A stretch of DNA of 64,000 nt, taken from assembly GCF_001677475.2 (NCBI RefSeq), contig NZ_CP015229.1. One strand, written 5' to 3'. The translations under genes were made by a program, and so were the position numbers. This DNA comes from Escherichia coli. Its GTDB lineage: Bacteria; Pseudomonadota; Gammaproteobacteria; Enterobacterales; Enterobacteriaceae. Shown here in pieces: positions 60,605 through 61,801 of the stretch (positions are counted from its first letter, which is position 1; each line of letters starts with the position of its first letter). The notes under the pieces were generated by a model that was not told where the DNA came from, did no database searches, and saw only the letters and a list, made by a program, of their open reading frames with translations.

Positions 60605-61801
60605 ATGGCTCAAGTTATTAATGAAATGGATGTCCCGTCCCATTCTTTTGTTTTTCATGGTACAGGTGAGAGATATTTTCTTATTTGTGTGGTGAATGTG
60701 TTGTTAACGATTATAACGCTAGGTATCTATTTACCATGGGCATTAATGAAATGTAAGCGTTATCTCTATGCTAATATGGAAGTTAACGGACAACGATTTT
60801 CTTATGGGATTACCGGTGGGAATGTGTTTGTTAGTTGTCTTGTTTTTGTTTTTTTCTATTTCGCAATCTTAATGACAATGTCAGCAGATATGCCGCTTAT
60901 TGGCTGTGTTTTGACTTTGTCACTGTTGGTTTTGCTTATATTTATGGCAGCAAAAGGACTGCGTTATCAGGCCTTGATGACCAGTCTCAACGGCGTAAGA
61001 TTTAGTTTTAATTGCTCTATGAAAGGGTTCTGGTGGGTGACCTTTTTCTTGCCGATTTTAATGGCCGTTGGGATGGGGACTGTTTTCTTTATCTCGACAA
61101 AGATGCTACATGCCAATAGTTCAAGTAGTGTTATTATATCTATGGTTCTGATGGCAATAGTTGGTATTGTTTCCATTGGTATTTTTAATGGTACTTTATA
61201 TAGTCTGGTAATGAGTTTTCTCTGGAGCAATACCAGTTTCGGTATACATCGTTTCAAGGTGAAATTAGATACTACGTATTGTATAAAATATGCCATTCTC
61301 GCATTTTTAGCTTTATTGCCTTTTCTCGCTGTTGCTGGTTATATTATCTTCGATCAAATATTAAATGCGTATGATAGTTCTGTATATGCAAATGATGACA
61401 TTGAGAATTTACAGCAATTTATGGAAATGCAACGTAAAATGATAATCGCGCAGTTAATCTATTATTTTGGGATTGCTGTTAGCACCAGTTATTTAACGGT
61501 GTCGTTGCGAAACCATTTTATGAGCAACCTGTCACTGAATGATGGGCGTATTCGTTTTCGCTCAACTTTAACGTACCACGGTATGCTTTATCGCATGTGT
61601 GCGTTGGTGGTGATATCCGGGATTACGGGCGGTCTGGCTTACCCACTGCTGAAAATATGGATGATTGACTGGCAGGCACAAAATACGTATTTGCTGGGCG
61701 ATTTGGATGACCTTCCTTTAATCAATAAAGAAGAACAACCAGATAAAGGCTTCTTAGCCAGGATTTCACGGGGAATTATGCCTTCTTTACCATTTCTGTA
61801 A
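60605..61801 (+). CDS. yjgN: Inner-membrane protein YjgN (DUF898)
   Basis: Multi-pass hydrophobic AT-rich ORF, 398 aa from MAQVINEM. Confidence 0.85.
   Translation: MAQVINEMDVPSHSFVFHGTGERYFLICVVNVLLTIITLGIYLPWALMKCKRYLYANMEVNGQRFSYGITGGNVFVSCLVFVFFYFAILMTMSADMPLIGCVLTLSLLVLLIFMAAKGLRYQALMTSLNGVRFSFNCSMKGFWWVTFFLPILMAVGMGTVFFISTKMLHANSSSSVIISMVLMAIVGIVSIGIFNGTLYSLVMSFLWSNTSFGIHRFKVKLDTTYCIKYAILAFLALLPFLAVAGYIIFDQILNAYDSSVYANDDIENLQQFMEMQRKMIIAQLIYYFGIAVSTSYLTVSLRNHFMSNLSLNDGRIRFRSTLTYHGMLYRMCALVVISGITGGLAYPLLKIWMIDWQAQNTYLLGDLDDLPLINKEEQPDKGFLARISRGIMPSLPFL

Follow-up and report, generated by a model that had tools for sequence, protein, structure and literature searches.

The gene yjgN occupies positions 60605..61801 on the + strand of a 64,000-nucleotide stretch of Escherichia coli DNA (contig NZ_CP015229.1, RefSeq assembly GCF_001677475.2), here called the window in its entirety, and is an intact open reading frame (ORF) that encodes an inner-membrane protein of the DUF898/YjgN family (398 amino acids plus stop). 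With regard to its evolutionary identity, yjgN is very probably the orphaned, re-tailed DUF898 subunit of an ancient module whose other member combines a PH-like domain, a transmembrane (TM) helix and an M48 peptidase domain, the window copy being a xenolog that was swapped as a cassette. As an explanation of the observations as a whole, that of an orphaned membrane subunit, selectively maintained and represented in the window by a xenolog, is the best available, and we regard it as reasonably probable. The mechanistic reading, in which YjgN acts as a non-catalytic scaffold or adaptor whose partner is now a different one, is put forward more tentatively.

The DUF898-M48 gene pair and the orphan clade

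An M48 peptidase gene directly follows the genes of three distant DUF898 homologues, from Sinorhizobium, Flavobacterium and one metagenomic lineage, and in a scan of one genome per species, which yielded 80 loci, an M48 gene on the same strand was present downstream at every sampled locus with downstream DNA, outside of a single enterobacterial clade. The distance between the DUF898 stop codon and the M48 start lies between -14 and +10 nt in 63 of 67 loci, the two genes overlapping in 37 of these, a spacing that is characteristic of translational coupling. Around the 67 paired loci no third conserved neighbour was detected, synteny being lineage-specific only, and the fact that no third gene family recurs across taxa indicates that the unit is a two-gene module. 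A gene for a protein of the metallo-beta-lactamase fold adjoins the pair in Flavobacterium and in an unrelated metagenomic lineage, and does not recur in the 67-locus census.

In the M48 partner, a single TM helix joins a PH-like domain (DUF7092) on the cytoplasmic side to an M48 zinc-protease domain on the periplasmic side, and in the latter the HExxH...E motif is invariant. Lys and Arg residues are more frequent ahead of the TM helix than behind it (3.09 vs 0.82; n=67), and it is from this asymmetry that the sides of the two domains are assigned. The nearest solved relatives of the M48 domain are the Geobacter peptidase 3c37 and E. coli BepA. These two proteins, as well as the periplasmic M48 proteases LoiP and YcaL, are relatives of the M48 partner and not of YjgN; they do not carry the PH-like domain plus TM anchor, and no DUF898 gene adjoins them.

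The M48-linked DUF898 operons of other Proteobacteria and of Bacteroidota, which are themselves uncharacterised, share with yjgN of the window the family, the repeat architecture and the N-terminal motif FxFxG...N..LT.ITLG.Y.PWA (Serratia, Rahnella, Vibrio, Sinorhizobium, Flavobacterium), and those of Enterobacterales and Vibrionaceae also share its chromosomal locus; they differ from it in the presence of the downstream M48 gene and of an acidic C-terminal tail. In Rahnella, Erwinia, Entomohabitans, Hafnia and Enterobacter sp. kpr-6, yjgN is transcribed divergently from yjgM and is followed by the M48 gene, on which valS converges, and the succession of yjgN, M48 gene and convergent valS is also found in Vibrio, Enterovibrio and Photobacterium. 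The adjacency of yjgM and yjgN extends over Enterobacterales, Enterovibrio and Photobacterium. In Superficieibacter, Citrobacter amalonaticus, Atlantibacter, Pluralibacter, Kosakonia, E. albertii and Salmonella (STM4474), yjgN stands alone between the divergent yjgM and the convergent valS; in the window, valS occupies the place that the M48 gene has in related genomes, the stop codons of yjgN and valS being 55 bp apart. At all of the Enterobacterales and Vibrionaceae loci that were examined, the yjgM-valS interval was occupied by a DUF898 gene, and no empty site was encountered among the sampled related genera. This presence throughout both groups indicates that the yjgN locus is ancestral and not inserted. 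In addition, there are no tRNA genes within positions 55000-64000 of the window, no Rfam families and no flanking direct repeats at its yjgN locus (terminator hairpins excepted), and no integrase, transposase or other mobility genes at the yjgN borders in the window ORF list, while those plasmid and phage DUF898 matches that were opened proved to be chromosomal DNA.

The DUF898 genes that are devoid of an M48 neighbour (Escherichia, Salmonella, Citrobacter, Kosakonia and relatives) are monophyletic in 100 of 100 neighbour-joining (NJ) bootstraps and, with the same support (100/100), sister to the M48-linked genes of Enterobacterales, which fits one deletion of the protease gene inside Enterobacteriaceae. 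The yjgN-valS spacers of 14 orphan loci were searched for an M48 remnant, and the top match (E 0.019, from a tiny search space) is unconvincing; the named homologues of the M48 partner include no protein from Escherichia, Salmonella or Citrobacter.

The C-terminus of the protein differs between the two classes. The M48-linked proteins (about 64 of about 64) end in a conserved acidic tail, for example AVGAEFMDxEGFDFGF, SAVGAEFMDIEGFDFGF or DEVAQAFDLGIGI, vs a tail of the form G....[IL]SRG[IV]MP..PF[ILM] (SRGxMPxxPF), or LLARGLSFYP in Kosakonia, in 13/13 orphans and in Salmonella. The window protein, which ends in GFLARISRGIMPSLPFL, is of the orphan type and lacks the acidic tail. Tail identity amounts to 0.40-0.67 within the orphans and 0.56 within the linked class, vs 0.06 between the classes. 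PH/PTB-like domains commonly bind peptides, and since the tail and the PH-like domain are both predicted to be cytoplasmic, the acidic tail may dock on the PH-like domain of the protease. Truncated yjgN frames were seen in Citrobacter amalonaticus (355 aa) and Hafnia psychrotolerans (239 aa), and may be lineage-specific pseudogenes or sequencing errors.

Two alleles of yjgN in Escherichia coli

Two highly divergent forms of yjgN are found at this locus in E. coli. The form present in the window (type 1) occurs in 4629 of 5426 complete E. coli genomes, with nucleotide identities of 95-99%, and the minority, B2/E. albertii-like form (type 2) in 796, or approximately 15%, including strains 536 and 83972; summed, and provided that no genome carries both, the two account for 5425/5426. 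In one pair of genomes that differ in allele, the YjgN proteins are only 41.8% identical, vs 99.6% for ValS, 99.3% for RraB and 92.2% for YjgM. The divergence is confined to an allelic cassette of approximately 1.45 kb (60358..61808) that takes in ~18 codons at the start of yjgM, the spacer and the whole of yjgN: sliding identity to L010, an E. coli locus with the minority allele, drops from 0.98 to 0.39-0.71 across ~60358-61808, and returns to 0.93-0.97 beyond it. Both borders are sharp, the left one at ~60358, in the first codons of yjgM, and the right one at 61808, with a conserved terminator just beyond it.

The two alleles have distinct relatives. Type 2 YjgN is 85% identical to its counterpart in E. 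albertii and 64% to that of Salmonella, and the three group together in 60/60 NJ bootstraps, a lineage that follows the species tree. Type 1 YjgN groups with Superficieibacter, with which it shares 63-66% identity, in 60/60 bootstraps, and with the other Escherichia and Salmonella proteins in 0/60. The incongruence of the gene tree indicates that the window carries a xenolog, which took the place of the native allele in situ. Elsewhere, too, YjgN diverges far faster than the proteins encoded next to it: between orphan genera, YjgN identities of 30-66% stand against 90-95% for ValS, two alleles in C. amalonaticus genomospecies share 41% identity, and in the linked pairs of Vibrionaceae YjgN identities of 44-69%, with which the protease co-varies, accompany ValS identities of 86-97%.

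According to an ST131 preprint, subclades differ in having "gained" yjgN, bdcAR, chpBS and yjgH and in having lost arcA, argF and arcC, which fits continuing exchange of the yjgN region. The minority-allele E. coli loci that were opened carry an arcA (arginine deiminase) cluster upstream of yjgK, and yjgL is missing from the interval that separates yjgK from the ornithine carbamoyltransferase gene; this combination of arcA presence and yjgL absence matches the swapped gene sets of the preprint. Further differences between the window and L010 lie at 58290-58690, where the 3' end of argI is 75-82% identical against 96-100% in the remainder of the gene, and at 59790-59957, where the rraB-yjgM spacer is divergent and L010 holds ~140 bp of extra sequence. 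The whole argI-valS region appears, from such comparisons, to be a recombination mosaic.

The YjgN protein, its gene and its surroundings

The sequence-only reading had described yjgN as a markedly AT-rich gene for a multi-pass DUF898 membrane protein with no assigned function, separated from yjgL by argI, rraB and yjgM, and in each of these respects the description holds. YjgN matches Pfam family DUF898 (PF05987) with E=3.4e-48 and 164.9 bits, well over the cut-off of 28, its residues 13-369 covering profile positions 2-315 of 336, and no other Pfam family is matched. At 50% identity the family falls into 8650 clusters. The window protein shares 98% identity with the main E. coli YjgN cluster, which has 11875 members, and its gene is the same as yjgN of E. 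coli K-12, with RefSeq annotating yjgN at the same locus and no difference in kind between them. No NCBIfam model matches YjgN, no PADLOC defence model matches YjgN, YjgL or YjgM at E<=0.01, and among PDB chains none displays sequence or fold similarity to YjgN.

Eight Kyte-Doolittle segments are present in the sequence, and an AlphaFold2 model (pLDDT 86.7, pTM 0.81), computed from an alignment of 36 homologues, displays five helical hairpins, each of which is followed by a small beta hairpin. Helical hairpins 1 and 5 are short (residues 21-37/43-56 and 324-340/346-359) and hairpins 2 to 4 long. The architecture consists of five internal repeats: profile-profile comparison aligns residues 9-63 with 312-366 at an hhalign probability of 98.4% (E 9e-15), and the middle units match at 92-95%. 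Across the family, Lys and Arg residues number 2.1-3.7 per beta-loop region vs 0.03-0.56 at the hairpin tips, a distribution that predicts a cytoplasmic location for both termini and every beta loop, with very little of the protein exposed to the periplasm. Hairpins 2 to 4 are the variable parts, at 19-37% identity; the tips of the two short hairpins and some of the cytoplasmic loops are well conserved. An alignment of 36 diverse DUF898 members reveals F17, G19, F25, N31, T38, W45, A46 and G213 as invariant, all of which are retained in the window protein. None of the invariant positions is a His, Asp, Glu or Cys, which speaks against a catalytic or metal-binding role of YjgN. Unusually long DUF898 proteins turned out to be tandem duplications or to carry unannotated extensions, and none is an informative domain fusion.

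Ratios of nonsynonymous to synonymous substitution (dN/dS, Nei-Gojobori) for orphan yjgN amount to 0.19-0.25 within the window type, 0.16 for type 2 against E. albertii, 0.13 for a Superficieibacter pair and 0.16-0.18 for Kosakonia-group pairs. The M48-linked Rahnella pair gives 0.067, ValS 0.01-0.06 and YjgM, in pairs between genera, 0.04-0.09. Judged from these ratios, the constraint on orphan yjgN is relaxed yet clearly present. Intact frames of 395-400 aa are found in about a dozen genera, and 4588/4629 type 1 and 793/796 type 2 copies are near full length (>=99%). Taken with the near-universal retention of the gene, dN/dS values of 0.13-0.25 argue that yjgN is functional. Insertion sequences (IS) have been caught at the locus: IS1 takes out the 5' three-quarters of yjgN in NZ_CP027126.1, the IS5-like ISKpn26 truncates the second allele, with rearrangement, in NZ_CP144926.1, and IS21 and IS1 lie between yjgN and yjgM in Shigella sonnei (PMC12795559).

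The composition of yjgN (GC 0.378, GC at third codon positions (GC3) 0.381) deviates strongly from that of the 47 other long ORFs of the window, whose GC averages 0.518 (sd 0.048) and GC3 0.565 (sd 0.083), with z = -2.9 for GC and z = -2.2 for GC3. Although F, I, L, M and Y make up 41% of its residues, the amino acids of YjgN encoded with the core codon usage of the window would give GC 0.475 and GC3 0.618, so that amino-acid content accounts for part of the GC deficit only and the bias is largely synonymous. In M48-linked taxa the GC3 of yjgN tracks that of the host; in both Escherichia alleles and in Atlantibacter it is strongly lowered.

The + strand ORF is open over 60578..61801, and the ATG at 60605 is a better start than that at 60578. 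It is preferred on account of a Shine-Dalgarno-like AGGGA (60594..60598, + strand, read directly from the sequence) 6 nt upstream, and because homologues from many genera align from the Met at 60605; direct reading found no Shine-Dalgarno sequence ahead of the ATG at 60578. The divergent yjgM/yjgN intergenic region (60413..60604) measures 192 bp, is very AT-rich (GC ~0.32) and cannot be aligned between the two E. coli allele types. A consensus scan, in which the number of sites was no higher than the shuffled expectation, places a candidate sigma-70-like promoter, TTGCCA-18-TATTGT, at 60504..60533 on the + strand. The same TTGCCA-18-TATTGT is given for yjgN in a K-12 RpoD genomic-SELEX table, in which the spacer is marked HNS (PMC3946193), and binding of RpoS holoenzyme in the K-12 yjgM/yjgN spacer was detected by genomic SELEX (PMC5493296). 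Downstream, an inverted repeat identified by a two-strand terminator scan at 61811..61834 forms a putative bidirectional terminator hairpin common to yjgN and valS; both E. albertii and the E. coli loci of the other allele type share it at 100% identity.

The gene order in the window is yjgL-like ORF, argI, rraB, yjgM, yjgN and valS. The divergent, conserved neighbour yjgM (59909..60412, - strand) encodes a GNAT acetyltransferase (Pfam Acetyltransf_1, E=5.9e-20), and the 3' part of valS, identified from its ORF and from RefSeq annotation at homologous loci, converges on yjgN from 61857..63908 (- strand). Between rraB and yjgM the window and other E. coli loci have ~45 bp only; miaE and an unannotated ORF of ~240-275 aa are present there in Superficieibacter, Citrobacter and Atlantibacter, and miaE and a 162-aa ORF (ytgA/STM4472) in Salmonella. 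The yjgL-like ORF (56308-58224, + strand; 638 aa, GC 0.324) contains ~19 tandem copies of an 18-nt unit at 56863-57202, which encode repeats of the LNNSQE/LNDSQD type, and its central domain gives a weak SopA-like match (E 0.003). Its best match in the 5426 complete E. coli genomes is of 95.4%, with many others of 80-90% or partial, and it looks hypervariable in its own right. Co-occurrence with yjgL was considered as a clue to the function of yjgN and set aside: the minority-allele loci that were opened are without yjgL, and yjgL is itself hypervariable. Elsewhere in the window, other compositionally deviant ORFs are 16536-17447 (+ strand; GC 0.357, GC3 0.329), presumably ytfI, 6242-6925 (+ strand; GC 0.405, GC3 0.434) and 53686-54177 (- strand; GC 0.451, GC3 0.384).

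Competing explanations and biological meaning

The odd composition of yjgN invites the idea, advanced in the sequence-only reading, of an old insert gained by horizontal transfer and retained like yjgL and ytfI, which would make the gene a small genomic islet. The GC and GC3 deficit does exceed what amino-acid composition explains, the K-12 spacer is flagged as an H-NS site and the window allele is incongruent with the species tree, but an insert is very unlikely for a gene whose family is found at the locus across Enterobacterales and Vibrionaceae, of which all complete E. coli genomes but one match either allele, and in which strains differ by allele and not by presence or absence, with no tRNA, direct repeats or mobility genes at the borders and with opened plasmid and phage matches that are chromosomal. 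That part of the claim which concerns foreign origin thus stands for the window allele, as attested by the gene tree and by a GC3 far under that of the flanks; the part which concerns insertion does not, as the site is occupied in all related genera sampled and in about 5425 of 5426 E. coli genomes and mobility hallmarks are absent. For yjgN, the suggestion that it belongs with yjgL and ytfI among old inserts of a similar kind finds no support. Likewise, yjgN resembles the AT-rich, H-NS-bound xenogeneic genes of E. coli in its AT content, atypical codons, foreign phylogeny and K-12 spacer listed as an H-NS site, but is a resident orthologue that was replaced within a conserved locus and not added DNA with island borders. 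A second explanation would make yjgN a functionless relic, decaying after loss of the protease and shaped in its composition by AT-biased mutation under relaxed selection. Its dN/dS is indeed 2-3x that of the M48-linked Rahnella pair and above that of neighbouring genes, GC3 is depressed in Escherichia and Atlantibacter and not in M48-linked taxa, IS1 and IS5-like disruptions occur and knockouts are viable; decay is nevertheless quite unlikely given dN/dS values of 0.13-0.25, well under 1, in five independent orphan comparisons, frames that are intact in about a dozen genera and near full length in 4588/4629 and 793/796 copies, invariant family residues that are kept, and a new C-terminal motif that is conserved across the orphan clade.

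Persistence of the gene after protease loss could also mean that YjgN is an autonomous channel or transporter, to which the adjacent protease is an accessory in other bacteria, and the ten helices of the protein, with two short, highly conserved hairpins that hold N31, T38, G40, Y42, P, W45 and T341-G-G, could be accommodated by such a function. The three long hairpins that would line the pathway are, however, the least conserved (19-37% identity), there is no invariant charged residue and no positive similarity was found, and we therefore judge this explanation to be unlikely. A role in conflict or immunity (envelope toxin, bacteriocin or phage), with divergent alleles kept by diversifying or balancing selection, would be in keeping with alleles that are 42% identical in E. 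coli and 41% in C. amalonaticus genomospecies, with the fast and parallel divergence of DUF898 and M48 genes in Vibrionaceae and with the movement of alleles between genera. It is, in our estimation, most unlikely, because no PADLOC model is matched, pairwise dN/dS is <0.25, variability runs along the membrane helices instead of being focused in exposed loops, and the gene has a fixed chromosomal position with no island context and, among the plasmid and phage matches that were opened, no real plasmid or phage carriage.

The explanation as an orphaned, selectively maintained membrane subunit, which we prefer, has points that weigh against it as well. The correlation between tail and M48 gene stems from a single loss event and is effectively n=1; the neighbour census covers ~90 loci that were chosen by similarity and are mostly from Proteobacteria; and the orphan dN/dS is 2-3x that of a single linked comparison, so that constraint is weak. 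IS elements disrupt yjgN in a few genomes, a viable knockout exists (the Keio mutant), and the locus has served as a neutral site for a marker, yjgN::tet being used as a linked one. The nearest relative of the window allele is only 63-66% identical, so that its donor would lie outside the genomes sampled, and a very old balanced polymorphism may account for the two alleles instead. Finally, the scaffold or adaptor role, the docking of the tail on the PH-like domain and the idea of a new partner are all inferences.

With these points in mind, the history of the orphaned subunit can be sketched as follows. Comparison shows that a DUF898-M48 pair has resided between yjgM and valS since before the divergence of Enterobacterales and Vibrionaceae, and that the protease gene was deleted, apparently in one ancestral event, in the Escherichia/Salmonella/Citrobacter/Kosakonia clade. 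In the orphan clade, the acidic tail was replaced by SRGxMPxxPF, and the gene continued to evolve fast, though under purifying selection. The native allele is kept in ~15% of E. coli, and elsewhere a ~1.45 kb cassette, bounded by the 5' end of yjgM and the shared terminator, brought in a divergent, AT-rich xenolog. In the ancestral module, the acidic tail and the cytoplasmic beta platform may have docked the PH-like domain, thereby anchoring or gating a periplasmic protease; in E. coli, hairpins 1 and 5 would persist together with the beta loops as a conserved core, the new tail probably recruiting a different partner, and expression of yjgN is probably low and influenced by H-NS. A bolder version, which we regard as doubtful, would see in DUF898 and its PH-like/TM/M48 partner an undescribed, widespread envelope protease module in which the tail docks on the PH-like domain and controls proteolysis across the membrane, with a re-purposed orphan in enterobacteria such as E. 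coli and Salmonella, equipped with a new tail and a new partner, and with two E. coli alleles kept by selection and not by chance recombination.

The existence of yjgN and of its family, and the lack of a known function for them, are already on record. The searchable literature on yjgN, DUF898 and DUF7092 returned no functional study, and mentions of yjgN are incidental (a marker allele, a table of a dauer screen, SELEX peaks, lists of single-nucleotide polymorphisms and a frameshift reporter). That literature yielded no mention of the almost universal association with M48, of the one-time loss of the partner with a switch of tail, of the two-allele structure in E. coli or of the xenologous origin of the common allele. 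A potential source of confusion is the membrane domain of PuuD, which we take to be DUF989, a 'DUF898' label on it being probably a typing error. Such a label is nonetheless given to the membrane domain in a paper on this membrane urate oxidase (PMC4562309). YjgN has only the label in common with PuuD, possessing neither a cytochrome c domain nor any Pfam match besides PF05987, and text searches for DUF898 may thus yield a false functional lead.

The function of the family would best be studied where the pair is intact, as in Serratia, Vibrio or Sinorhizobium. The odd composition of yjgN is explained without invoking an island, and pangenome calls of "gain" or "loss" of yjgN, as in ST131, may be allele replacements. 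Of interest mainly to specialists, and with a mechanism that is inferred, these results provide a concrete, testable context for a long-standing E. coli gene.

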